Source: Candidatus Jordarchaeia archaeon (GTDB lineage: Archaea; Asgardarchaeota; Jordiarchaeia; Jordiarchaeales; Jordiarchaeaceae). From it: a DNA stretch of 11,737 nucleotides. How positions within the stretch are numbered: position 1 is the stretch's first letter; every line of letters begins with the position of its first letter. Under the pieces are notes generated by a model. It was not told where the DNA came from. It searched no databases and worked only from the letters and a program-made list of their open reading frames with translations. The stretch is taken from assembly GCA_029856435.1 (NCBI GenBank), contig JAHQXB010000015.1:1-11737 (forward strand), in the 5' to 3' direction. A program made the translations under genes and the position numbers. Below are positions 1-11,737 of this stretch, one piece after another.

Positions 1-1
1 A

Positions 2-226
2 TTCAGCGGAAAGACGAAGCGGAAGAAAGCCATACTAGCCATCGACCAGCACGACGAACCCTACTACGGAGACTCCCAGTCAGATTACGTGACCACGGGA
101 AAGAGAAAAGAGGGCACCAACCGCTTCTTCAGATTCGCAACCGCCTACGTCTGTGAGGACGGATACCGTTACAACCTGGCGGTGGAAATGATAAAAAAGG
201 AGGCAAAATGGCGGAAATCGCCCTAA
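2..226 (+). pseudogene. ISH3-family transposase, N-terminal catalytic part (open to the window edge, not in the ORF track)
   Basis: Frame +2 translates as FSGKTKRKKAILAIDQHDEPYYGDSQSDYVTTGKRKEGTNRFFRFATAYVCEDGYRYNLAVEMIKKEAKWRKSP*. LAID-x-H-xx-PYYG...GT...AT is the first-Asp region of ISH3-type DDE transposases. Confidence 0.8.
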
Positions 227-777
227 AACTGATAGAACAAGCCCAATGCCTAGTAAAAATAGGCCTAGCAGTACTGGACGGAGCCTTCTACGACACAAAC
301 CTGGTGAGGGAAACCGACCAGAGGGGGATAAAATTCATAATCCGGGGACCAGTGAACGAGCCTATAAAAGGGCTGGTTGAGGAGAACAACCTTCAATCAC
401 TGAAGGAGGGTGAGGGTAAATTCTTTAAATACACCATGAGCTGCCACGAACCTGGAAGGCGCTGCACACACGAAGTCAGGTTGCCCATCTGCCGGAGATA
501 CGGAGAACTCACCGTTTTAATTGCAAACAGGGACTTGAGGAAAGGTGTGAAAGGAGTGATTGCTGTCTTCAACTCCCGGTTCGGCATAGAATCATCCTAC
601 CGGGATGGGCGGCGGTTCCAGTGGCGGACTACATCGAACAGAGACAATTTCCGGGCGGCAATGTTCTTCGTGGGGATCATACTGCAGAACTTTCTCCACC
701 TTTTCCTTAAGCGCATCAAGCAGTGGGGGGAGAACGCCTCCAGAAGCCCAACGTACAATCCTCATCTTCGTACTTAG
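208..777 (+). pseudogene. ISH3-family transposase, C-terminal part (in the -1 frame relative to 2..226)
   Basis: VLDGAFYD carries the second Asp, FNSRFGIESSYR carries the catalytic Glu, and RTTS...R...F...N is the C-terminal signature. It joins the upstream frame through a -1 shift in the A-run at 193-198. Confidence 0.8.
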
Positions 778-1329
778 GATCCTGGTCTGCTTCTACCCAC
801 CAATATAACCCTTGATGAAAAATTAAAAGGGAGGTGATAAAAATATAAAAACAGTTAACAATTCGAAAGTACTGCTAGGGTGACGCATACGTTACTGCGA
901 TGTAGATTTATTCAGCTCCATTTTCCTCATAAAGCTCTAACTCGCGAGCTATGCATTACCCAATAGGTGATAAGGTTAATTGTTTCCCTCCAATTTTGTG
1001 TGGAAAATGCATAGTTTCCTGTTCCTGCAAATAAAAGTATCACGCACATATAAAATCATGGAGAGAAAAATTACTCGATAATAATTGTGGGTAATGCATA
1101 GAAATCGTGAGGGGGATTTATAGACGCCCGTTTTTGACACATAACCAAGCCCTTCTGCACCACCGTGACGTATTTACATAAAAGCAATGCACACCCAAAC
1201 TATGAATGGGCTTTCTTTCCTTGTGGTAAAAATACGTAAATTTTTGGGAGGAGCAACTTTAAAGTATTACCTTTGCTAAAATAACATGATTTATAAGCAA
1301 TCAGTTTATGGATAAAAAGGCGGAAGGAT

Positions 1330-1764
1330 GTGTGGATGGTGGGCTTCCGATTTCTTGAGCACACAGCGGATATTAAGGTGAGAGCTTATGGAAAAACAAT
1401 TAATGAAGCCTTTCAGGAGGCCGCCCGAGCACTCTTTGAGGCAATGACAGATACTTCAAAAATTAATCCAAGGATTAAACGAAAAATTGAAGTAGAAGCG
1501 GAAGATTTGAAGGCATTACTTTATCAGTGGCTAGAAGAATTTATCTACCTGTTTGACTCTGAAGGATTAATTTTTTCAGAGTTTAAGGTAGAAAGCATTC
1601 AACAAAAGGAGGGAATACTAAAGTTAAAGGGCGAAGCCTCAGGCGAAGAATTCGACAGCAAGAAGCATGCACAGAGGTCTGCGATAAAAGCAATAACATA
1701 CCATGAAATGAAAATTGATCAATCGCCCAAAAAAACAACTCTAGAATTTGTATTAGATATCTGA
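1330..1764 (+). CDS. Archease (RtcB RNA-ligase activator / tRNA-processing cofactor)
   Basis: N-terminal FRFLEHTADIKVRAYG, central LLYQWLEEFIYLFD, C-terminal IKAITYH...VLDI. Length 144 aa. The start is GTG 1330 or ATG 1336. Confidence 0.95.
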   Translation: MWMVGFRFLEHTADIKVRAYGKTINEAFQEAARALFEAMTDTSKINPRIKRKIEVEAEDLKALLYQWLEEFIYLFDSEGLIFSEFKVESIQQKEGILKLKGEASGEEFDSKKHAQRSAIKAITYHEMKIDQSPKKTTLEFVLDI

Positions 1765-1796
1765 TTTAATCTATTATAACTTCATAAAAATAATTA

Positions 1797-1967
1797 TGGC
1801 GCCGGGAGTGGGACACTCTGGGAAGCAAGGGTTTCTGGCTTCCATTCGAACCCACGCATCCCTTGCGGGATACTGGCTCTCAAGGCTTACGCTTTAGGGA
1901 AACAACCCATTCAATCAGCGCAGTAATGTGGACTTTCTAGAGGTATTATCCACTTTGCTATCCCGGC
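1797..1967 (-). tRNA. tRNA-Ser(UGA) with encoded CCA and three non-canonical introns (D-loop, 29/30, 59/60)
   Basis: Acceptor stem GCCGGGA/TCCCGGC with discriminator G and CCA. Anticodon arm CTG|GC-CTTGAGA-GCCAG, with TGA at 1882-1880. Long variable arm TATCCCGCAAGGGATGC. T arm GTGGG-TTCGAA|T-CCCAC. Removing 1926-1947, 1887-1915 and 1814-1844 leaves an 89-nt type II cloverleaf. Confidence 0.9.
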
Positions 1968-1995
1968 TACCTATTACTTGATAATGAGTTACGAA

Positions 1996-2007
1996 TATAT
2001 TTATTTC
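1996..2007 (-). promoter_or_regulatory. Candidate BRE/TATA of the tRNA-Ser gene
   Basis: The - strand reads GAAA-TAAATATA, with the TATA-like octamer about 29-36 nt upstream of the mature 5' end. Confidence 0.45.
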
Positions 2008-2099
2008 TAACCTTTTTTGATCAATTATTTCGTTCGACTTCTAATATTTAATGGATGGATAGCAGAATCGGGCAAGGAACATATTTCTATCGATATTGT

Positions 2100-2918
2100 T
2101 TATTTTCGGCTAAGCTGGCTGAGTTCATCGAATATTTCGGGTCTCAAATCTCGTAGTACTGGTGCCGCTATTCTTGAAGCTTTTAGCTCTGAGTAGTCTA
2201 TTGTTGCAGTTATCAAATCTTCTTCGTCATATTTTGCGTTCTTTATTACTGTACCGTCTGGGCCTACTATGCGGCTTCCGCCCCAAAAAACTAGACCATC
2301 TTCAACTCCTACAAGGTTTACATATGCTAAAAAGACGGTGTTTTCCATAGCTCTAGAGGATACAAATGTTTCGAAGTATCTTGTACGAGTGCCAGGTGAG
2401 GCGGAAATACATACTATCAGTTGGGATCCCTTGATAGTTAGCAGGCGAGCAATTTCCGGGAAGAATATATCGTAGCAGATCATTAACCCTATTTTTCCAA
2501 TTTCGGTTTCAAGAACCTGCGTTTCATATCCTTGCCTAAAATACCTTTTTTCTTCGAAAACTAGATGTGTTGGTAGATATTTTTTCCGATATTTTCCAAT
2601 ATACCCCTTGGGGCCCACCATTACCGAGGTGTTGTATAGCACACCTTCCTCTGCTTCTTCCGCCATTCCAAAAATCACATATACACCATTTTTGTTAGCG
2701 ATACTTTCTATTTTTCTCACAGAGGGCCCAGGAATACTTTCTGCTAAGGAGTAATAGTTGTCTCTGCAAGAATAGCCTGTGAGAATAAGTTCTGGAAAGA
2801 TTACTAGTTGTGCTTGTTCACATGCAGCTTCAGATATAGCCTTGTCCATTTTTTGTAAATTTTTTTCTTTGTCTCCGAGTGTAGGAATTATTTGCGCCAA
2901 GGCTAACTTCACTTTCAT
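2100..2918 (-). CDS. Carbon-nitrogen hydrolase (nitrilase superfamily), similar to the glutaminase domain of glutamine-dependent NAD synthetases
   Basis: Triad E43 (FPEL), K112 (YRKK), C148 (ICYD). Loop LPTHLVFEEKRYF. SD GGAGG at 2930-2926. Confidence 0.92.
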   Translation of the reverse strand: MKVKLALAQIIPTLGDKEKNLQKMDKAISEAACEQAQLVIFPELILTGYSCRDNYYSLAESIPGPSVRKIESIANKNGVYVIFGMAEEAEEGVLYNTSVMVGPKGYIGKYRKKYLPTHLVFEEKRYFRQGYETQVLETEIGKIGLMICYDIFFPEIARLLTIKGSQLIVCISASPGTRTRYFETFVSSRAMENTVFLAYVNLVGVEDGLVFWGGSRIVGPDGTVIKNAKYDEEDLITATIDYSELKASRIAAPVLRDLRPEIFDELSQLSRK

Positions 2919-2940
2919 AATTTTTCCTCCAACAGTTTAA

Positions 2941-2958
2941 TATATTTCGAGAAATATA
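2941..2958. promoter_or_regulatory. 8-2-8 inverted repeat TATATTTC-GA-GAAATATA in the 86-bp divergent intergenic region
   Basis: Perfect 8-bp arms, seen directly. Function unknown: it could be an operator or back-to-back TATA elements. Confidence 0.35.
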
Positions 2959-3004
2959 GTAGTTTGATAAACTCTTATAAGTTATATACTGTGGTGGTTT
3001 CAGA

Positions 3005-3847
3005 GTGAAACTCTCACAAGATTTGCTTCGTATAGATCCCGAATTTGTTGAGAAACGCATAGTCAAATTTATTCGCGCTAAAGTCATCGATGCAGGTTTT
3101 TCAGGGGCAGTAATAGGACTAAGTGGAGGTATTGATTCTTCCGTTGTTGCAGCTCTCTGTACTAGAGCATTAGGTCCTGATAAAGTGTTGGGGCTTATGT
3201 TACCTGAGAAAGATAGTGAGCCTAACGATGTTAAAGATGCGTTAAAAATAGCGGAACAACTTAATATACCCTATAAGATAATAGATGTGTCTCCAATAAT
3301 AAATGCTTGTAGGGCTACTTATGTAGAAGACGCCACAGAACCGCCTATAATTATTGGAAATGTGAAGGCCAGGGTGCGCATGATAACACTTTATTACTAT
3401 GCAAATAAGTTACAACGTCTGGTGGTTGGTACAAGTAATAAAAGTGAAATATTAATTGGTTACTTCACCAAATTTGGTGACGGGGCCTCCGACATATTGC
3501 CGATAGGGGATCTCTATAAAACTCAAGTCCGCCAATTGGCAGAGTATCTAAATATTCCAAAAGAAATAATTGACAAAATTCCCACCGCAGGGCTTTGGAA
3601 GGGCCAAACCGACGAATCTGAAATTGGCGTTCCTTACAGTGTACTTGACCTGATACTTTATGGTTTAGAGCATTGGAAGAATGAATCCGAAATTGCCGAA
3701 GAGCTTCAAATACCTATCGAAAAAGTCAACAGAATAGTAGAAATGTGGAGAAGGAGTGAACATAAAAGGATAGGCCCTGTAATCTTTAAAATAGCATACA
3801 GGACTCCCAGTTTAGACTGGAGAGTTCCATTAAATTATTACAGGTAA
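3005..3847 (+). CDS. nadE: NAD+ synthetase (single synthetase domain)
   Basis: GLSGGIDSS PP-loop, GNVKARVRM, GTSNKSE, GYFTKFGDG, DLYKTQV, PTAGLWxGQTDE, HKR. GTG start. Confidence 0.97.
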   Translation: MKLSQDLLRIDPEFVEKRIVKFIRAKVIDAGFSGAVIGLSGGIDSSVVAALCTRALGPDKVLGLMLPEKDSEPNDVKDALKIAEQLNIPYKIIDVSPIINACRATYVEDATEPPIIIGNVKARVRMITLYYYANKLQRLVVGTSNKSEILIGYFTKFGDGASDILPIGDLYKTQVRQLAEYLNIPKEIIDKIPTAGLWKGQTDESEIGVPYSVLDLILYGLEHWKNESEIAEELQIPIEKVNRIVEMWRRSEHKRIGPVIFKIAYRTPSLDWRVPLNYYR

Positions 3848-3869
3848 AATTTTAAAAAGGGGTGAAAAT

Positions 3870-4130
3870 ATGGGGCGTAGAAGAAGAAAAAAAGTACAAA
3901 GAAGACCTGAAAGGCGAATACCTACCGTTTTTGAATGCCCGTCCTGTGGGGAGAATGCTGTGAAAGTGGAAATCAATAAAGTTGAGGAATTAGCAACGGT
4001 GGGTTGCGGCAATTGTGGACTAACTAAAAAGGTAAAAATAACCAAATTGACAGAAACTGTAGATGCATATAGCGAATTTGTAGACGCCTTTTATGAGGGG
4101 GAAAAAGCTGTTTCAAATGAGAGAAAATAA
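3870..4130 (+). CDS. elf1: Transcription elongation factor Elf1 (zinc ribbon)
   Basis: Basic N-terminus MGRRRRKK, FECPSC...CGNCG zinc ribbon, VDAYSEFVD motif. SD-like GGGGTGA just upstream. Confidence 0.93.
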   Translation: MGRRRRKKVQRRPERRIPTVFECPSCGENAVKVEINKVEELATVGCGNCGLTKKVKITKLTETVDAYSEFVDAFYEGEKAVSNERK

Positions 4131-4149
4131 GAATTTTTTCATGGTTCAT

Positions 4150-5070
4150 TTAGAAGAGTAACAGGTATATAGCGAATGCACTAATTGCACCGATGGCCGT
4201 TGCGACGAAATTAACAATGTTATTGTCGATAGCCTTATGGCCTCTCAGATGAACTGTGACCTCTCCGCAATGAATATCGTGCTCAGTTATTTTTCCACAA
4301 ACGGGACATTTGTAGAGTGCTTGAACCGTGGCTCCTATTAAGCTATCTGCAGTACTTCCAATGAACCCTGCACCTACAGCAATTATTATCAACTTTACAC
4401 CAGTTGGTAACCCAAAGTTAAATATATCCAACCAAGGAAACAGGCCAATTCCAAGAAGGTTAAAGTTTTGCATAAGGAAAGCTACGCCACCAGTAATTAG
4501 GCCGCCCATAAGTATTGCAAGCTCTCCGAGAGGTGAGACGCCTCCTGATGTGCCAGGTACAACCTTCTTAGAAAGGTTAGTGATTAGTCTGGGAGGATGA
4601 GGATTTAGTAGGCCTACCTCAGTTGCTAATGTATCCGCAGCAGCAGTAGCTACAGCCCCGATAAAACCTGCGAGGAAAATATCGAATCGCCCTATGGGGA
4701 TAAAGAACAGGCATACCCCCTCCATCACAGCCAGAAAAGCTGCAAGTCCCCCATTCGCGATAACATTTGTCCATGCCCTTGCTCCACCTTTTTCTTGAGC
4801 TGCCCCTAGTTTTCTCTTTCTCTCGTACTTGAACTTTGTGAACGCCGCAGAGACCACGAAGAATGCCAATATGATTAGAAACCAAGCCCAATTACCAAAT
4901 ATCCACACAGCTAAACCTACAACTAGCCCTGCCAGGAACCCCGAAAAATCTACCACACGTAGTTTAATTGAGACAAATCCAAAACCAGCCACCACTGCAA
5001 TACCAATTAAGAGAGAAATTATATTTGTGAATCCTGCATTGAACAGTGGTTCAAACATTTTTTCCTTCAC
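4150..5070 (-). CDS. DUF92/TMEM19-family (TIGR00297-type) integral membrane protein
   Basis: Multiple hydrophobic helices. Motifs EKGGARAWTNVIANG, AAADTLATEVG, GTSGGVS, GSTADSLIGAT, DNNIVNF, plus a CPVCG...HCG insert. The start is GTG 5070 or ATG 5058. Confidence 0.92.
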   Translation of the reverse strand: MKEKMFEPLFNAGFTNIISLLIGIAVVAGFGFVSIKLRVVDFSGFLAGLVVGLAVWIFGNWAWFLIILAFFVVSAAFTKFKYERKRKLGAAQEKGGARAWTNVIANGGLAAFLAVMEGVCLFFIPIGRFDIFLAGFIGAVATAAADTLATEVGLLNPHPPRLITNLSKKVVPGTSGGVSPLGELAILMGGLITGGVAFLMQNFNLLGIGLFPWLDIFNFGLPTGVKLIIIAVGAGFIGSTADSLIGATVQALYKCPVCGKITEHDIHCGEVTVHLRGHKAIDNNIVNFVATAIGAISAFAIYLLLF

Positions 5071-5349
5071 ACACCTATTAGTCTATAGTATTAATACTTG
5101 TTGCAAATTATTAAATGGAGAAATATCTCTTTTTAGACGAATATGTAACATAATTAATGTTTTCTAGTTTTACATACTTTCTAGATAAAAAGTTTTCCCA
5201 AACTTGATACTTTAATTCGTAATATGACGAAATAAAAGAAATTTTTCATAAAAAGTCGAAAAGATAATTACTTTGCATGGTGTGAAAACTAGTTAAAAAT
5301 TATGAAAAGTATATATTCGTGTTTAACAAGCGGTGTTTTTTGAGGCTGA

Positions 5350-6141
5350 ATGACCCTAAAACTTTATAAAAACGCACAGATATACAAATCCAGAAATATT
5401 AGGAAGAGTTTAAAAGAGATGCCTAAAGTAATTTGCGTCTCCCCCGCGTACAATGAAGAAAAAACAGTCGCTAAAGTAGTGCAAGCGGCTCTAAAATATT
5501 CTGAAGGAGTAATAGTTGTAGATGATGGAAGTACGGATAGTACCTATGAAGAGGCGAAAAAAGCGGGGGCTACAGTTGTTCGGCACTATAAAAACCTAGG
5601 CAAAGGAGCCGCTTTAAAAACAGGTTTCAAAGAAGCTTTAAAGATGGGAGCGGACATAGTAATTGTTTTAGATGCAGATTTGCAACACAATCCAGAAGAA
5701 ATACCCAAACTGCTTAAAACTATGGAGAGGGAAAACGCAGATATAGTGGTAGGTTCAAGATTCCTTGGCGTAATAAAGGGTATGCCACGAATACGAATTC
5801 TGAGTAATAAGTTAACCACAAGTATTTTACGCTTATACTTCAAACTACCAACTACAGATAGCCAAAGCGGTTTTAGAGCGTACAAAAGACGAACTTTGGA
5901 ACAAGTTGAATTTTCAGCCCCTAGATTTTCTGCTGAAACAGAGATACTAATTGATGCTCATAGGAAAGGCTTCAGAATCTCAGAAACAAAAATTCAGACA
6001 ATATACGGAGAAGAAAAATCTAAAATGCGGAATTTTGAAGACACTATACGTTGGATCTGGGATGTGGATAAGCAGTTAATTAAAACGCTCATTTATAAAA
6101 GGGTATATAACAATAAGCCAAGCCTTAATAGATACCATTAA
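5350..6141 (+). CDS. Family 2 glycosyltransferase, DPM1/polyprenol-phosphate glycosyltransferase-like
   Basis: PAYNEE, VVDDGSTD, NLGKGAA, DADLQH (DxD), GSRF, DSQSGFRAY. No obvious C-terminal transmembrane helices. The real start may be ATG 5419 (MPKVICV). Confidence 0.93.
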   Translation: MTLKLYKNAQIYKSRNIRKSLKEMPKVICVSPAYNEEKTVAKVVQAALKYSEGVIVVDDGSTDSTYEEAKKAGATVVRHYKNLGKGAALKTGFKEALKMGADIVIVLDADLQHNPEEIPKLLKTMERENADIVVGSRFLGVIKGMPRIRILSNKLTTSILRLYFKLPTTDSQSGFRAYKRRTLEQVEFSAPRFSAETEILIDAHRKGFRISETKIQTIYGEEKSKMRNFEDTIRWIWDVDKQLIKTLIYKRVYNNKPSLNRYH

Positions 6142-6367
6142 TCCTTTGAATCGGCAATTTTTCATTTATTATTATGTGCTTTATCTGGCGCGCTTTTCCC
6201 CTATAATTGAGAAAAACGGCTTTTTGCCTATTTCAGCAAATTAGGAAATAAAAAACACGTACCAGCCAGCAGCACATCTACTTAATAAGTAATGTTTTTG
6301 TTGCGGACTTGAAGACACAGTTTCCTCATTTTTAACATCTTTGTGTAGAAAAGGGAGGGCGGACGAA

Positions 6368-6442
6368 ATGCCGAGGCGAGCTAAGGGCAAGGCACATCAC
6401 ACAAAACTAGCGCCATGGAGTGTTATTCGAAAATATGGATAA
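6368..6442 (+). CDS. Small basic protein, 24 aa: MPRRAKGKAHHTKLAPWSVIRKYG
   Basis: ATG with GGAGG at 6354-6358 (9-nt spacer). Lies wholly in intergenic space, in a GC-richer patch than its surroundings. Seven K/R and no acidic residues. Too short for the supplied ORF track. Confidence 0.55.
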   Translation: MPRRAKGKAHHTKLAPWSVIRKYG

Positions 6443-6476
6443 AAATGGAAGTTTTAAATTGCGAGGGGGGAATATT

Positions 6477-8795
6477 CTAAAAATAGTTATGAGCTTCTTT
6501 AATTTCTTGTTCCTCCCATTTTGAACTAGTAGGTAATATGAAGTAAGATCCTATACTTCGGCAATATTTCGCTAAGTTATCGCTTGAAGAACCACATTTT
6601 GGGCACTTATTTTGAATACCATTAAACGATTCTAAGCAATGAAAACAATAGGTGAGGTATCTAGTAAAGGTGAAACATCCTATTTGAGTCTCTGTACAAA
6701 TTTTTTCGCTAAGATCTAACAATTTATCAGAAGAAACCTTCCTTCCAAGGGGGATATTCATTAAATGCCCACCTAAAAGCAGTTCATGAAACATACCTTC
6801 CATCCTTATTCTTTCATCGATCGTTAGAGGTGCTGAAATCCGGATATTACTAGTTGAATAATAAATGTTATTGCCTACCCCTCGCACACTAACATTCTTT
6901 TTTCCGAACATTTCAACGTCAAGCTTAGCTAACCTATTTACGTAATAGCCACTTACAGGTTGAGTTACTACCCATCTTAATCCCGTGTTAATTTTTAACT
7001 CATCTGTATACTCATTTAGATATTTTAAAATTCTTATAGCGAAATCTAAAGATGCCTTGTTATTATCTATTGATGTGCCTACATGTTTCTTAACCGCTTC
7101 ATCTAGCCCAACAAAACTTAAGGAATGAGTTGCATTATCAATTCGGTAGTATAAATCACCGTCTAAATCAGAAGTCAATGCAGGAAGTGTTCTATCATTA
7201 AACATTCTTTCTCTAATAGCTTGTGACTTTATTTTAAGCACTGCAGAAGCCATGCCCAACCTCTCATTAAGTAACTCGAAAAAAAGCGTATCATCACCAT
7301 TTGACTCATAAGAGATTCGGGGCAGGTTAACAATTACTGTTCCAAGATTCCCAGTCCTTAAAGTGTCAAGCTCCCAATCTTTGCTCCAGTCTGTGCCTAA
7401 ACGTTCCGCTGCTCCGGTATAGTTAACATTATCATTCTGCCATTTAGGTGAAAAATTTATAAAAAAGGAGTTACCCCAATTAGCTGACAATTCAAATATC
7501 TTATTTAGAATTGGTAGAATAGCATCATTTTTCCAAATATCTGGCCTTAATTTAAAAATTGTGTGACAGTTAAGAATGGGTTTTCGCGCTAAATTTTCTT
7601 CTTCCAGTAAGACTTCAATTAAAGCATCAACAAATAGCTGAGCTTCCCCCTCAAAATCTTGATATTTCCCCACAGTTTTCCAGTTTGGGCCAATTGCAGG
7701 TTTATTTTTAAGATGTTTAGGCAGTACAATTTCCAAATTAATGCTGATTGAACGACCCATATTGTGACACAATTCACTAATAAAATAACGCGTAATATTT
7801 TTAATTTCATTATATGACAGGCCTCTTAAAAAGGGAGCTATGAAAAAATTAAAATTATCTAAAGATTGTTCCCCACTTAAATCTGCTTGAAACAAGTTTA
7901 ACAGCTTAGGTAATTGCATAATTAGGGTCTTAGGGTCATTTATTCTATTTAATTGAGTAAATATTCTCTCCCCCAATCTAGATTTTAAAGATAGCAAACT
8001 GTAGATATCGTGTTGGATATTGTTGGGACGTAGTACCCAATAACTGGCATCTGGTATATGTATGGCTCCGGAGAGATGGGCATCAGCTATTTCCCTAGGT
8101 AAAATCTTTAAAAGTAGATACTGCTCTAGAACAGCATCGCCAGCCAGCTTATGTATTCTTTCAGCATTCGAAACCTCGCTCTTAGGGTTTTTTATTATGG
8201 TCGTAACATCATATACTGGAAGCCCTAAGCGTGTGAGTGCATGTCGATACTCCTCTAATCCCTTTTCTAACAAGATTGCATTAACAAATTCTCGAATTAA
8301 GGGAGCGGTTAAATATCTAATCTTAGATTTAAGTAAACGCTCTTCTGCTTCCATAGCAATATTTTCAGCAAGCTGCTTGGGAACTCTAGCTTCCCTCATC
8401 AGCGAATCCGCAATTTTTTTCCTATCAAATCGTTCTATAGCCAATCTCGACGTCCTAACGAAAAGCTCTCCTTTCTCCCTTCGACTAAATTCCTCTAGCA
8501 TTCTAATAAATTCAACTGTCTTTTCTCCCAAACTCGTTAGTGTATAGTTATTATCTTCATCACAGTCAACTAATTGAGCCTTTTTTGTCAGCTCACCAAG
8601 ATGGTAGGCAAACTTTCCCGCCTCTTTCTTTGGATCCATATCTAATAGTTGCATAATTTTAGTAAAAGAAAGGGGACTTTTCATACTAAGAACTTTTAAT
8701 ATCTGTATACGTGTTTCGCTAGATAATGCAGACAAAACCGCCGAAGTCAACTTCCAATCTTCTAATCCTTCAGACACATTAGACCCCTGTAACAT
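6477..8795 (-). CDS. Fusion of an ArsR-type winged-helix domain, an ATP-cone and a class III ribonucleotide reductase (NrdD) fold with degenerate catalytic sites
   Basis: aa ~15-102 wHTH (LSSETRIQILKVL...GKFAYHLGEL...YTLTSLG). aa ~111-195 ATP-cone (VRTS...FDRKKI...TAPLIRE...LTRLGLP). NrdD landmarks AHLSGAIHI, SGEQS, GNLGTVIVNLPR, VGLDEA, RLAKLD, GGH, and a CFHC...CPKC Zn site. The catalytic Cys positions are substituted. Confidence 0.9.
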   Translation of the reverse strand: MLQGSNVSEGLEDWKLTSAVLSALSSETRIQILKVLSMKSPLSFTKIMQLLDMDPKKEAGKFAYHLGELTKKAQLVDCDEDNNYTLTSLGEKTVEFIRMLEEFSRREKGELFVRTSRLAIERFDRKKIADSLMREARVPKQLAENIAMEAEERLLKSKIRYLTAPLIREFVNAILLEKGLEEYRHALTRLGLPVYDVTTIIKNPKSEVSNAERIHKLAGDAVLEQYLLLKILPREIADAHLSGAIHIPDASYWVLRPNNIQHDIYSLLSLKSRLGERIFTQLNRINDPKTLIMQLPKLLNLFQADLSGEQSLDNFNFFIAPFLRGLSYNEIKNITRYFISELCHNMGRSISINLEIVLPKHLKNKPAIGPNWKTVGKYQDFEGEAQLFVDALIEVLLEEENLARKPILNCHTIFKLRPDIWKNDAILPILNKIFELSANWGNSFFINFSPKWQNDNVNYTGAAERLGTDWSKDWELDTLRTGNLGTVIVNLPRISYESNGDDTLFFELLNERLGMASAVLKIKSQAIRERMFNDRTLPALTSDLDGDLYYRIDNATHSLSFVGLDEAVKKHVGTSIDNNKASLDFAIRILKYLNEYTDELKINTGLRWVVTQPVSGYYVNRLAKLDVEMFGKKNVSVRGVGNNIYYSTSNIRISAPLTIDERIRMEGMFHELLLGGHLMNIPLGRKVSSDKLLDLSEKICTETQIGCFTFTRYLTYCFHCLESFNGIQNKCPKCGSSSDNLAKYCRSIGSYFILPTSSKWEEQEIKEAHNYF

Positions 8796-8821
8796 TATTT
8801 AAATTTCTTTTATTTCAAATA

Positions 8822-9025
8822 TTACACAACTATGCTAAATTTAACTTTTGTCTCATTTTTGATGAGATATAAAAAGACTGTCTCCTTCGAAGCTTGGAAA
8901 TCGTAACACTGAAGGTGATGGAAAATGTGTATTACTGAAGTTAACATGTGGTTTATAAATGATTCAATACCAATACTTTTTGGCGGCATCCGGCAAGCAT
9001 TTTCGAAAAACGAAACAATGAACAC
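8822..9025 (-). CDS. Hypothetical 67-aa ORF, doubtful
   Basis: GTG start with GAGGTGA at 9042-9036 (10-nt spacer). No recognisable motif, and it overlaps an antisense ORF that also has an SD-like sequence. Confidence 0.2.
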   Translation of the reverse strand: MFIVSFFENACRMPPKSIGIESFINHMLTSVIHIFHHLQCYDFQASKETVFLYLIKNETKVKFSIVV

Positions 9026-9353
9026 CTATAACTTATCACCTCATTGTTCGGATACTCCATTTTAACAAACCCCAACGTCACTTTTACAAATCTAATGAGC
9101 CCAAAAAAATTGATTTTTATCTTAAAAAAGGCGGCTCCACACTCTCTCCATATCTATCTTATATGATTAAAGAAATTTTGCATACGAAGTGTATCGCGTG
9201 TAACTTTAGAATAAACCGCAAACACTTTGATGAGACGTTATAGCTCCACTCATAGCCTTCCAAAATTCAAACGCTTAAGAGAAATACCTTAAAAGAATAC
9301 CAATTTTAGCAAACAGATTTTAAATTCATATGCACATACTTACCTTTAGTTTT

Positions 9354-9773
9354 TCACTCAATCGTTTTCCTAATCAGAGGTCTAAATTTAATTGCATAAT
9401 AAACTACACCATCTTCACCGTCTTCTTTTACCTTACGAAGTGTAGCTTCTACTGGCATACCAATAAATATTTCATCGGTATCGCAGTCAGTTAATTGGCA
9501 AGTTACTTTCACCCCGTCTAATAGTTCAATTAAAGCTACAGGGTATGGTGCATATCCTTCAAAATTATTTGGTGGTTTTCTTATTATGGTATACGATAAA
9601 ACTTTTCCTCTATCTGGAAGTCTTTGAGAGCTCAACTCTTTACTTCCACAGTTTGGGCAAACAATTCTAGGTGGAAAAAAGGAGGAGTTACAATTTTTAC
9701 AAGTAACCCCTTCTAACCTGTATCTTTGAGGTATTTCCCTCCACAAATTGGGTAATCTCATTTCCTCTCCCAC
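9354..9773 (-). CDS. DUF35 protein (zinc ribbon + OB fold; acyl-CoA-binding thiolase partner)
   Basis: RYRLEGVTCKNC...FFPPRIVCPNCG, G-x-V-x-SYT, PYPVALIEL, IGMPVEATLRK, Y-x-x-KFRP. Starts 8 nt downstream of the thiolase stop. The start is GTG 9773 or ATG 9761. Confidence 0.93.
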   Translation of the reverse strand: MGEEMRLPNLWREIPQRYRLEGVTCKNCNSSFFPPRIVCPNCGSKELSSQRLPDRGKVLSYTIIRKPPNNFEGYAPYPVALIELLDGVKVTCQLTDCDTDEIFIGMPVEATLRKVKEDGEDGVVYYAIKFRPLIRKTIE

Positions 9774-9781
9774 CAGAGCAT

Positions 9782-10975
9782 TTAAACTCTTTTAAGAATA
9801 TGTACAGTTACTAAGGATCCTATGCCTGCAGCGTTTTGTATTAGTGCTACTTCTGCAGGATCCGCCTGATTTTTTCCAGCCTCGCCTCGAAGCTGAAGTG
9901 TAGCCTCTACTGCTTGATAAACGCCAGTAGCACCCATAGGGTGTCCTCTAGCCTTGAGGCCCCCACTTAAATTAGTGGGTATAGGCCCATTCAAGTCAAT
10001 TAGACCCTCCTCAACAGCTTGTCCCACTTTCCCTCTCTCGATGAGACCTAAATCTTCCAAAGCAAGGAATCCAGAAATAGTGTAGGAATCATGTATTTCA
10101 AATAAATTTATATCCGAAATTTTTAATTTAGAATGTTCCAGTGCTATCTTAGAAGCCTTTGATGTCCCATCAAAGGTAAGTATATTTTTTCTATCGTAAA
10201 GTGCTAAAGTATCTCTCGCCTGCCCCGCGCCCACTATCTCTATGGGAGTGTCTGTGAATTCTTTAGCTTTCTCCAAAGGACACAAAATAACTGCTGCTGC
10301 TCCGTCTCCAGTCGGAGCTGTATCAAATAAGGTCAGAGGGTCAGCAACTGTTTGCATATTCAACGCATCTTCCACAGATATTTCGAAGGGTAATTGAGCA
10401 TACCGGTTCTTAGCTGCATGTTTATGCATTTGAACTGCAAATAGAGCGAAGTACCTTTTTGATACATTATAATAATGCATATAGTAACGCATAATTATCG
10501 CGAATTCCCCATCAAGGGATAGACCATGAAATGCCTCATATTCCTGTTCAACTGCCATAGACCCTATTCTCCTGTTCTCCCCCCTCGTAGCTTCAGACAT
10601 TTTTTCCACCCCCACCACAATAACGAAATCATAAAGCCCTGAAGCAACTGACTTAAAGCCTTCATAAAGGGCAGCCCCACCGGACCCATCAGCACACTCC
10701 ACAAGTACACATGGTGTAGATTTTAAACCTATGGAATCAGATAGGAGAACACCAATGTTCTTCTGAGAAAAATACTCGCTTGCAGACATATTTCCTATGT
10801 ACATTGCGTCTAAGTGAGGATTGCCCGCATTTTCTATTGCATCCAAAGCAACTCCAGCGAATAGCTCGCGGAGGGATTTGCTGTAATAATTTCCGACTTT
10901 ACATAGGGAGCGACCACAGATTGCTACTCTCCGCAATATCGCAGCCTCCACTTTATGAAAGTAAATATACTCCAT
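9782..10975 (-). CDS. Archaeal/SCP2-type thiolase-fold protein (acetyl-CoA acetyltransferase family) with an altered nucleophile motif
   Basis: VGVEKM, DGAAA, EIHDSY, NLSGGLKARGHPMGATG, QN-x-x-G-x-G. The likely true start is TTG 10936 (MRRVAICG), with GGAGG 8 nt upstream. Confidence 0.92.
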   Translation of the reverse strand: MEYIYFHKVEAAILRRVAICGRSLCKVGNYYSKSLRELFAGVALDAIENAGNPHLDAMYIGNMSASEYFSQKNIGVLLSDSIGLKSTPCVLVECADGSGGAALYEGFKSVASGLYDFVIVVGVEKMSEATRGENRRIGSMAVEQEYEAFHGLSLDGEFAIIMRYYMHYYNVSKRYFALFAVQMHKHAAKNRYAQLPFEISVEDALNMQTVADPLTLFDTAPTGDGAAAVILCPLEKAKEFTDTPIEIVGAGQARDTLALYDRKNILTFDGTSKASKIALEHSKLKISDINLFEIHDSYTISGFLALEDLGLIERGKVGQAVEEGLIDLNGPIPTNLSGGLKARGHPMGATGVYQAVEATLQLRGEAGKNQADPAEVALIQNAAGIGSLVTVHILKRV

Positions 10976-11279
10976 TAACTCATTCTAAACATTTTTCTAG
11001 CAAATGGCAAATGAGCGATAGCCCTCGAAAGTATTTTTACTCAGGGACGGCTTTTGACAATTTTCCCTTTTCACTTTTTATTCACAAACGGAAATCAACT
11101 GCCAATCGAAATACGTGTTTGACTACCTTTATTTGTTCAACTTCGCCTTAATAAAGGGTTGAATATTTATAATTCCAAGACGCATATTAGAATCTTCCGC
11201 AAACTTGCTGAAAATTTCAGTTTAGACCTTAATTTAAAAGACAATTTCTAGTTAAAAGGAACTTGTTAAAAAAATAATT

Positions 11280-11737
11280 GGCGTTGGGGGTGTTTTGCCC
11301 TTTTTTGTGTTCCCGTGCTTGTTTGGGGTGTATGTTTCTCTCTCTACTCTACATATTCCAGTCTTCTTGTAGTGGGGGCTGTGAGGCGGACTAAATGGGG
11401 TGGACTAAGCCTGTTTTTCCACAGATTGTCTGCTCTATGAACTGGAGTAGGGCTACTTCCTCAGGAGGCGGTTTTCCGAGGGGAACGAAGAAGCGCCTCA
11501 TCCCAAGGAGGAACAATACACGCTCGATGTTGTGATAAATAGCCCCCAGCTTGAGGACCTTGTCATAATTCTCCTGCTCCCCGTAGTGACTTGTTTTGCC
11601 CGCTCTGGCCTCCATGTTGGCGAAGTTTCGTTCCACCAGCTTTCTCCAGCAGTACAGGTTTTGGTCAAACACCTCCCTGCAGCGTCTAAACACCGCTCCC
11701 CCGTAGTCTTCTCCCCCCCACTTTTTAGGCCTTATGT
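11280..11737 (-). mobile_element. IS5/IS4-like DDE insertion sequence, 3' part, truncated by the window edge
   Basis: Composition shifts to higher GC at about 11280, and the region contains a transposase C-terminus. The left boundary is approximate and no inverted repeat can be confirmed. Confidence 0.6.
11391..11735 (-). CDS. DDE transposase C-terminal fragment (frame open to the window edge)
   Basis: IRPKKWGGEDYGGAVFRRCREVFDQNLYCWRKLVERNFANMEARAG...IYHNI fits the FD...Y-xx-R-xx-VE-xx-F...G...N pattern around the catalytic Glu of IS5/IS4-type transposases. Confidence 0.7.
   Translation of the reverse strand: MRPKKWGGEDYGGAVFRRCREVFDQNLYCWRKLVERNFANMEARAGKTSHYGEQENYDKVLKLGAIYHNIERVLFLLGMRRFFVPLGKPPPEEVALLQFIEQTICGKTGLVHPI

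Follow-up and report, generated by a model that had tools for sequence, protein, structure and literature searches.

Does the gene at positions 6477 to 8795 of an archaeal contig encode an anaerobic ribonucleotide reductase (RNR), as suggested by the name 'anaerobic ribonucleoside-triphosphate reductase' that databases give to the proteins of its family, or a regulator derived from such an enzyme? The window, that is, the whole stretch of DNA analysed, comprises 11,737 nucleotides of Candidatus Jordarchaeia archaeon (assembly GCA_029856435.1, contig JAHQXB010000015.1, positions 1-11,737 of the forward strand). The gene lies on the reverse strand, with 772 codons open from an ATG at 8795 and a stop codon at 6477-6479. 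An initial annotation had described its product as a catalytically dead class III RNR (NrdD) preceded by a DNA-binding domain; its coordinates and motifs for this gene were exact on re-checking of the sequence, and the frame is indeed open across all 772 residues. We consider, with moderate confidence, that the protein is a non-catalytic NrdD paralog acting as a nucleotide-responsive DNA-binding regulator, because a dead NrdD scaffold has been kept under selection together with a conserved ATP-cone and a winged helix-turn-helix (wHTH) domain, and is linked to RNR and pyr genes.

The register of the catalytic residues was checked in a MAFFT alignment of 120 homologs with E. coli NrdD (NC_000913) and the canonical NrdD of the same genome (P0122), and again by comparing a profile of 71 family sequences with solved NrdDs; the placement of the Cys and Gly positions holds in both alignments. 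In the P. copri enzyme (PcNrdD), the residues involved are Cys171 on strand beta1, Cys416 at the tip of the finger loop, Gly711 with the conserved Tyr712, and an NxN flap, while Glu581 connects the substrate, the flap and Tyr712 (PMC11226230). The former beta1 site of the Jordarchaeial protein reads RPNNIQHD (8007-8030, on the reverse strand like all features of the gene given below; residues 256-263, within IHIPDASYWVLRPNNIQHD at residues 245-263). N259 stands at the Cys position (C175 in E. coli, C171 in PcNrdD, also a Cys in T. maritima), and the absence of Cys from this first redox region, already proposed, extends to the family, where the column holds E in 53, S in 29, D in 17, N in 11 and Cys in 0 of 121 sequences. 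The finger loop reads YTGAAERL (7398-7421, residues 459-466), and both alignments bear out that the thiyl-radical Cys (E. coli C384, PcNrdD C416) is missing from it, its position being taken by E464. The beta-hairpin itself is kept in the AlphaFold2 (AF2) model, with strands at 457-459 and 465-467, and at the finger-loop column, 35 of 121 close homologs and less than 40% of a diverse set have Cys. The initial annotation had also stated that Thermotoga-type NrdDs lack the finger-loop Cys; this was mistaken, since the T. maritima enzyme has a CC pair there in the alignment, and the conclusion is unaffected.

Substrate and radical motifs are likewise altered. The TPAE(S) motif has degraded, as had been noticed, to QPVSG (6948-6962, residues 612-616), with S615 replacing the Glu (PcNrdD E581) in a column that is variable in the family. 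The flap region (residues 204-211) has an SNAE context here and varies among family members, whereas active archaeal NrdDs read N..xNPE(T/S)IHK. The relic of the glycyl-radical loop, RSIGSY (6543-6560, residues 746-751), had been taken for a lost motif, which proved true in part: the RxxGY context and the family-wide conservation of the Gly are gone, but the Gly itself is present, as G749 aligns with the radical Gly (G681/G711). As for the conserved Tyr next to it, the profile alignment puts S750 at its position (Lys in the family), while the pairwise alignment puts Y751 there and treats S750 as an insertion. The Gly column holds G in 58, A in 47 and S in 8 of 121 sequences, and the C-terminal tails differ widely; such a G/A/S column argues against radical function in the family, without proving its loss for this one protein. 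The zinc ribbon CxxC-x10-CxxC (6594-6647; C717, C720, C731 and C734) was rightly said to be kept, being invariant at all four columns in 71 of 71 sequences, and these ligands are the sole conserved cysteines of the family. C343 and C410, either of which might have served in the active site, are not conserved, the family majority having N and P, respectively. By comparison, the canonical paralog P0122 has C..WD, a CC finger loop, TPAES and RITGY. With the NCBIfam equivalog model for NrdD (TIGR02487), the protein scores 288.3 bits, under the cut-off of 326.35. Sequence comparison thus confirms it as a non-catalytic NrdD paralog, because catalytic and substrate positions are substituted, only the zinc cysteines are conserved and the score falls below the equivalog cut-off.

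With regard to the domains, Pfam recovers the predicted order of an N-terminal winged helix ahead of an ATP-cone and the NrdD fold, as DUF7347, ATP-cone and NRDD. The ArsR/SmtB-like wHTH (8505-8741, residues 19-97) matches DUF7347 with 43.8 bits. The ATP-cone (8244-8459, residues 113-184) was correctly listed as retained: it matches PF03477 with 28 bits against a cut-off of 25.8, and shares its motifs with active archaeal NrdDs. It is of the archaeal 'VRTS(R/K)..E.FD..KI' type common to the canonical NrdDs P0122, P0139, P0145 and P0185, and V113, R114, F123 and I128 are invariant in the family. The cone-to-barrel linker, YLTAPLIREFVN..LEKGLEEYRH.LTRLGLPVYD (8208-8315, residues 161-196), is better conserved than any other part of the family, and the non-catalytic NrdD-type ten-stranded barrel with its C-terminal domain (6495-8168, residues 210-767) matches PF13597 (NRDD) with 252 bits. 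The AF2 model, built with an alignment of 71 family sequences, has a mean predicted local confidence (pLDDT) of 88.3. Searched with Foldseek, all its best matches are class III RNRs (S. thermophilus, P. copri, T. maritima and T4), with target-normalised TM scores of 0.63-0.77 against 9dca, 8p23, 4coj and 1hk8.

The DNA-binding head gave only sub-threshold matches to the ArsR families HTH_20 and HTH_5 of Pfam. A profile of 41 heads matched HlyU, CadC and ArsR in the PDB over about 85 residues (E values of 1.3e-4 to 2e-4), and other ArsR/SmtB structures, PH1061, NmtR and CzrA, with E values of about 1e-4; the match spans the whole wHTH and aligns the family helix AGKFAYHL..L onto the ArsR recognition helix. 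Within this recognition helix, AGKFAYHL, G60, Y64, H65 and L66 are invariant in the family and F62 is nearly so, and across phyla the invariant residues of the head are R29, G60, Y64, H65, L66, Y84 and G90. The wHTH has no conserved cysteine. A single-sequence AF2 model of residues 7-205 (pLDDT 59) was too poor for a fold search, and a two-copy complex prediction of residues 1-205, covering wHTH and cone, scored 0.35 against a mark of 0.42, which speaks neither for nor against dimerisation.

Purifying selection acts on the gene, and most strongly on the wHTH and ATP-cone. Between this gene and two same-genus orthologs (dS 0.17-0.18), dN/dS for the whole gene is 0.09-0.12, with values of 0-0.07 for the wHTH (0.00-0.035 in same-genus pairs) and, in the same-genus pairs, 0.02-0.03 for the cone and linker, 0.11-0.16 for the barrel and 0.07 for the C-terminal domain. 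The canonical NrdD of the same genome pairs has 0.03-0.04, and two more distant pairs agree, though their dS is saturated. Column conservation across phyla is 0.85 for the linker, 0.67 for the cone, 0.56 for the wHTH, 0.47 for the barrel and 0.39 for the C-terminus. From the per-domain dN/dS and the conservation together, the regulatory N-terminus is therefore the part most protected by evolution: the wHTH and ATP-cone are as constrained as a real enzyme, while the barrel is relaxed in comparison with a working one, yet far from neutral.

A word-index search returned 974 matches, of which the best 120 are all of the same length and nearly all carry the same three domains in their annotation, counted as NRDD accompanied by DUF7347, the ATP-cone or both. 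These best 120 come from Jord-, Frey-, Hel-, Hod-, Odin- and Njordarchaeia, Atabeyarchaeia, Bathyarchaeia and Methanomethylicia, and confirmed relatives are encoded by no fewer than 575 GTDB species genomes of Asgard archaea, Bathyarchaeia and Methanomethylicia. A FastTree phylogeny was computed on barrel columns for 134 representatives (50%-identity clusters, with E. coli NrdD and the paralog added). One clade (SH-like support 98; 67 rows, 13 of them 'short' and mostly N-terminal fragments) holds every wHTH-fused, motif-less protein, the one studied here included, and no canonical NrdD, and it branches within the archaeal NrdD radiation; the tree has several long branches, and its internal order should not be over-read. 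The initial annotation had proposed testing whether loss of the cysteines tracks the fusion, and it does: with one clade free of canonical members, fusion and loss of chemistry coincide and therefore happened once. By these columns, the tree shows the clade of wHTH-fused dead NrdDs to be ancient. The closest active archaeal NrdDs also have about 90 extra N-terminal residues, which form a second ATP-cone and not a wHTH. A literature search returned no publication on DUF7347 or on an HTH-fused or inactive NrdD, and an RNR phylogeny paper leaves such NrdDs unmentioned (PMC9531940).

The same tree contains two further NrdD-like clades without the catalytic Cys, TPAE and Gly motifs and without a wHTH, one with P0176, P0180, P0190, P0193 and P0251, the other with P0196, P0200, P0212, P0224, P0233 and P0246. 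P0176 and P0200, both scanned for domains, have two ATP-cones and a barrel that ends before the glycyl-radical domain. Branching among active NrdDs, these two clades look like independent RNR pseudoenzymes. In addition, among the 47 canonical archaeal NrdD representatives, about 30 have lengths of 960-1700 residues and match in 2-4 stretches, and one of them, P0153, contains intein splicing and LAGLIDADG domains; in the wHTH clade, 0 of 67 members exceed 800 residues, and they appear intein-free.

The genome does not depend on the dead paralog for deoxyribonucleotides (dNTPs), since separate RNRs are encoded on two other contigs; the paralog is not its sole RNR. Contig C133 carries a thioredoxin/glutaredoxin-like gene (nrdH) followed by the intact canonical NrdD P0122, and C110 carries a gene for a 701-residue RNR large subunit (PF02867) with its own ATP-cone-like N-terminus, which we refer to as a class II-like RNR. 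Upstream of the latter (positions 1-420 of C110), a tRNA-like, apparently interrupted sequence stands at the contig start. An NrdG-type activase scoring above the curated cut-off is encoded on contig C29, and the window holds no nrdG, in keeping with the earlier remark that none is adjacent. NrdR (TIGR00244) had no match in this genome, which is 97.8% complete. Presence and absence were further followed in 25 relatives, where canonical NrdD is found in 5 of 5 same-genus and 5 of 5 sister-family genomes.

The neighbourhood of the family was surveyed in 88 oriented loci, which are mostly from Bathyarchaeia and include relatives that are not independent, so that the counts are descriptive. Directly downstream and on the same strand, nrdD, with or without nrdH before it, occurs in 22 of the 88, and pyrB is present in 32, usually convergent, with pyrI diverging from it. 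Where at least 3 kb of downstream sequence was available, nrdH-nrdD and/or pyrB-pyrI come right after the family gene in 36 of 61 loci. At three further loci it is followed by a gene for a class II-like RNR (about 65% identity to the PF02867 protein of the present genome), at one of them 126 bp away. On the other side, 12 of 65 loci, from Asgard archaea and Methanomethylicia and with this window among them, have a thiolase-DUF35 pair as the next genes upstream on that strand, and the gap is often only tens of bases in relatives. The ancestral order was likely thiolase-DUF35, family gene, nrdH-nrdD and pyrB / pyrI, the right-hand part having been lost in the lineage of the window.

A candidate cis-element accompanies this arrangement in many Bathyarchaeia. 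TTATACAGAATTTTATACMA or a near variant lies between the family gene and nrdH/nrdD in about 15 of 22 loci, 55-85 nucleotides before the start codon and about 10 nucleotides upstream of a TATA-like AAAAAATTAAATA; this layout recurs in promoters of class II RNR genes adjoining family genes, as TACATTTTTCTATAC ... AAAAAATTTAAATA. The relaxed pattern TACA-N7-A[TA]A[CG], in forward orientation, is found in 16 of 25 RNR promoters against about 0.5 expected (about 0.02 per promoter), in front of class III as well as class II RNR genes that adjoin family genes, and in 10 of 88 family-gene upstream regions (about 1.7 expected); the box was found in none of 23 pyrB-pyrI spacers. The exact 20-mer occurs once in the complete genome of Ca. 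Bathyarchaeum tardum. A second site there, with three mismatches, was rejected: it lies beside small unannotated open reading frames and such hits were matched in number by control hits. Allowing up to two mismatches, 9 of 151 genomes of the Bathyarchaeal class have the 20-mer, against 2 for the reversed control, and just two of the hits, the best ones with 0 and 1 mismatch, fall at family-gene/nrdH junctions, the others being in coding sequence or by unrelated genes, which restricts the 20-mer to a subclade. The box fits, as a candidate, the layout of an operator for a dedicated local regulator.

For the Jordarchaeial genome itself, the initial annotation had suggested looking for elements shared upstream of the nrd genes, and no shared operator was found there by position weight matrix (PWM), regular expression or footprinting. 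Footprinting upstream of nrdH in ten related genomes revealed blocks conserved at genus level, none of them common to the upstream region of the gene under study. The block conserved in the genus of the window is TATC(T/A)AAAAAATTTTAGTAA...A(T/C)ACAACAC, and that of the sister family, which has no dead paralog, is TTAAAGATTAAAGAAACTTTTAAATT.

How would such a regulator work? A dimer formed through the NrdD barrel would set two wHTH heads together. Binding of ATP or dATP at the cone, and possibly of dNTPs where the specificity or active sites used to be, would then shift the position of the heads or the oligomeric state, and this shift would toggle binding at promoters of nucleotide metabolism, namely, those of RNR genes, perhaps of pyrBI, and perhaps its own. 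In PcNrdD, ATP and dATP reorder the cone and alter the balance between dimer and tetramer (PMC11226230). The retention of the barrel suggests that it may do more than dimerise, perhaps binding dNTPs. More tentatively, and with doubt, we can propose that its former specificity site may still take up dNTP effectors, and its former active site NTPs, so that the whole allosteric read-out of an RNR, both the ATP/dATP ratio and the dNTP balance, would be passed on to transcription; the profile alignment is unreliable around the specificity site (PcNrdD Asn298, loop 2), and no residue mapping is claimed there. If true, the protein would be an archaeal master regulator of DNA-precursor supply, acting on class II and class III RNR and pyrBI promoters independently of NrdR.

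Several observations weigh against the regulator reading. The gene adjoins no nucleotide-metabolism gene in this genome, where it has moved away from its proposed targets and follows thiolase-DUF35 behind a 558-bp spacer, and the conservation of neighbours elsewhere may in part be inherited synteny. In this genome, the Bathyarchaeal box is missing, by PWM and relaxed pattern alike, from the regions before nrdH, the class II RNR gene, nrdG and the gene under study; the PWM, derived from 15 Bathyarchaeal boxes, gave a sole hit of 12.7 bits, in opposite orientation and 45 nucleotides before the class II RNR gene, where about 0.03 would be expected over the four regions. The box could equally be a core-promoter feature, such as a second BRE/TATA (B recognition element and TATA box), its tie to the protein being adjacency alone. 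The dead paralog is found in 4 of 5 same-genus and 0 of 5 sister-family genomes; since relatives lacking it keep the canonical NrdD, it is dispensable and hence accessory. With regard to sensing, the Pfam match of the cone is weak (28 bits), we know of no biochemical characterisation of the VRTSR variant, and a sensor consisting of the cone only does not explain why a barrel of about 560 residues was retained under selection.

Part of this evidence has been weighed under other explanations. The dead paralog might be a partner subunit of the active NrdD, forming a heterodimer through the dimer interface or docking on the RNR and tuning its activity or allostery, with a wHTH serving only in autoregulation or protein contact. 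Selection has preserved the whole barrel and zinc ribbon (core dN/dS 0.10-0.16), the frequent adjacency to nrdH-nrdD suggests an origin as a tandem duplicate, and each of the seven relatives with the family gene among the 25 searched also has canonical NrdD. We nevertheless regard this as unlikely: the family gene also stands directly upstream of class II RNR or pyrBI genes with no nrdD nearby, the wHTH and cone rather than the barrel are the most constrained, and the recognition helix is near-invariant, as expected of DNA contact. Improbable to much the same degree is a wHTH transcription factor answering to a signal other than adenine nucleotides, be it another metabolite, redox state or a metal perceived through the barrel or zinc domain, with a regulon that might comprise thiolase-DUF35 (mevalonate pathway). 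Its appeal lies in the thiolase-DUF35 pair upstream in 12 of 65 loci of two phyla, with gaps in relatives compatible with co-transcription, in the modest score of the cone and in the fact that ArsR relatives are typically metal or redox sensors; yet the cone and linker are the best conserved parts and of the same type as in active NrdDs, no conserved Cys/His cluster exists beyond the structural zinc ribbon, and linkage to RNR and pyrBI genes is commoner than that to thiolase.

That the protein is still an enzyme, whether an RNR or another radical enzyme using unconventional residues, or G749 with a displaced Tyr, appears very unlikely. G749 does align with the radical Gly, 35 of 121 close family members have the finger-loop Cys, the fold is intact and an NrdG-like activase is encoded in the genome. 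Set against this, the beta1 Cys is found in no family member examined, the Gly column is G/A/S with variable tails, the present protein lacks the finger-loop Cys and no cysteine other than the zinc ligands is conserved, neither the TPAE Glu nor the flap remains, and an activase is adjacent at one locus only, where it follows a canonical nrdD. A decaying pseudogene or annotation artefact might account for eroded catalytic motifs and for a gene that was not found in some close relatives. It is next to impossible here and can be discarded: the frame of 772 codons is intact, dN/dS is about 0.1, the architecture is kept in at least 575 species genomes across phyla, and the AF2 model is confident.

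Turning to the gene in its window, the true start is probably a GTG at 8777 (codon 7), giving 766 residues, because codon 1 is ATA in the ortholog of the same-genus genome G003 and the 95%-identity homolog P0002 starts at residue 7. The upstream spacer with the presumed promoter (8796-9353, reverse strand) separates the gene from DUF35 by 558 bp, as delimited from the sequence and an alignment of five same-genus loci. TTTAAATA, the reverse complement of 8796-8803, directly adjoins the ATG at 8795; we infer that it may be a promoter element, with which a leaderless mRNA beginning near GTG 8777 would fit. About 470 bp of the spacer are an insertion found, among the five loci, only in this genome (G000), G001 and G003; it is noncoding, has a single copy in the genome and about 90% identity among the three, and a TCTCATCAAAAATGAGA hairpin lies inside it. 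Rfam and ARAGORN gave no match in the window, so that neither explains the spacer, and no tRNA was detected in the window by ARAGORN or by Rfam at the gathering threshold, the multi-intron tRNA-Ser noted at 1797-1967 in the initial annotation going unseen by both of these standard programs.

The thiolase and DUF35 genes upstream, on the same strand, encode an acetoacetyl-CoA thiolase pair. At its other end, the gene is convergent with a GT2 gene, beyond which lie genes for DUF92, an Elf1 homolog, NAD synthase, CN-hydrolase and archease, and this gene order is kept in close relatives. The Elf1-type zinc-ribbon protein (86 residues; 3870-4130, forward strand) matches PF05129 with 77.5 bits and is homologous to Elf1, a transcription elongation factor of eukaryotes; its position is also kept in relatives. 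An open reading frame of 189 residues (208-777, forward strand) has a sub-threshold match to a DDE transposase (17.5 bits) and may represent the remains of a transposase gene at the edge of the window.

The transcriptional control of ribonucleotide reduction in archaea is, to our knowledge, largely unknown, and the wHTH-cone-NRDD family, present in at least 575 species genomes and often placed next to RNR or pyrBI genes, offers a concrete candidate regulator of archaeal RNR. It would also be a clear case of a large radical enzyme turned sensor, and its occurrence in Asgard archaea bears on the control of DNA precursors in the lineage nearest to eukaryotes. On the practical side, misannotation matters, as metabolic reconstructions may credit genomes with an extra class III RNR that they do not have.

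Among known systems, NrdD itself (P. copri 8p23, S. thermophilus 9d3x, T. maritima 4coi, phage T4 1h78) has the same fold from ATP-cone to zinc ribbon. In sequence, the present protein is nearest to archaeal NrdDs that have two ATP-cones (for P0139, the identity is about 40%) and share the archaeal cone and linker motifs. Unlike these enzymes, the family lacks the beta1 Cys, the TPAE Glu, the NxN-type flap and a conserved Gly-Tyr loop, and the protein at 6477-8795 lacks the finger-loop Cys as well. Its N-terminal wHTH takes the place of the second ATP-cone seen in the nearest active relatives, and the wHTH clade appears to be free of inteins, whereas many active archaeal NrdDs carry them.

The proposed logic is that of NrdR, a repressor of RNR operons composed of a zinc-ribbon DNA-binding domain and an ATP-cone: in both, a cone is coupled to a DNA-binding domain in a protein encoded by or near genes for nucleotide reduction. 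NrdR is mostly bacterial and rarely archaeal. It is described as sensing ATP and dATP and as binding boxes in front of nrd operons through a change in its oligomeric state (PMC9110341). The two share homology only in the cone, the family has a wHTH instead of a zinc ribbon, a whole dead RNR barrel is attached to it, and its candidate boxes, if any, are unlike NrdR boxes; by its domains, the protein at 6477-8795 is an analogue of NrdR and not a relative. The ArsR/SmtB regulators (HlyU 3jth, CadC 1u2w, ArsR 6j05, PH1061 1ub9) align with the head from alpha1 to the wing and alpha5, including the ...HL..L...L(V/I) helix. The matches are weak (E about 1e-4), however, Pfam gives the head a family of its own, DUF7347, and the wHTH is fused to a sensor of about 670 residues instead of forming a stand-alone dimer of 100-residue subunits. 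Finally, NrtR consists of an inactive Nudix domain and a wHTH, a degraded enzyme domain being kept as the ligand sensor. The design principle appears to be the same with a different enzyme family, and here the scaffold would be allosteric at several sites, the cone among them and perhaps the specificity and dead active sites as well. Both a degraded-enzyme sensor joined to a wHTH and an ATP-cone joined to a DNA-binding domain are thus designs with precedents, of which the Jordarchaeial protein and its relatives would represent an unusually large and widespread example.

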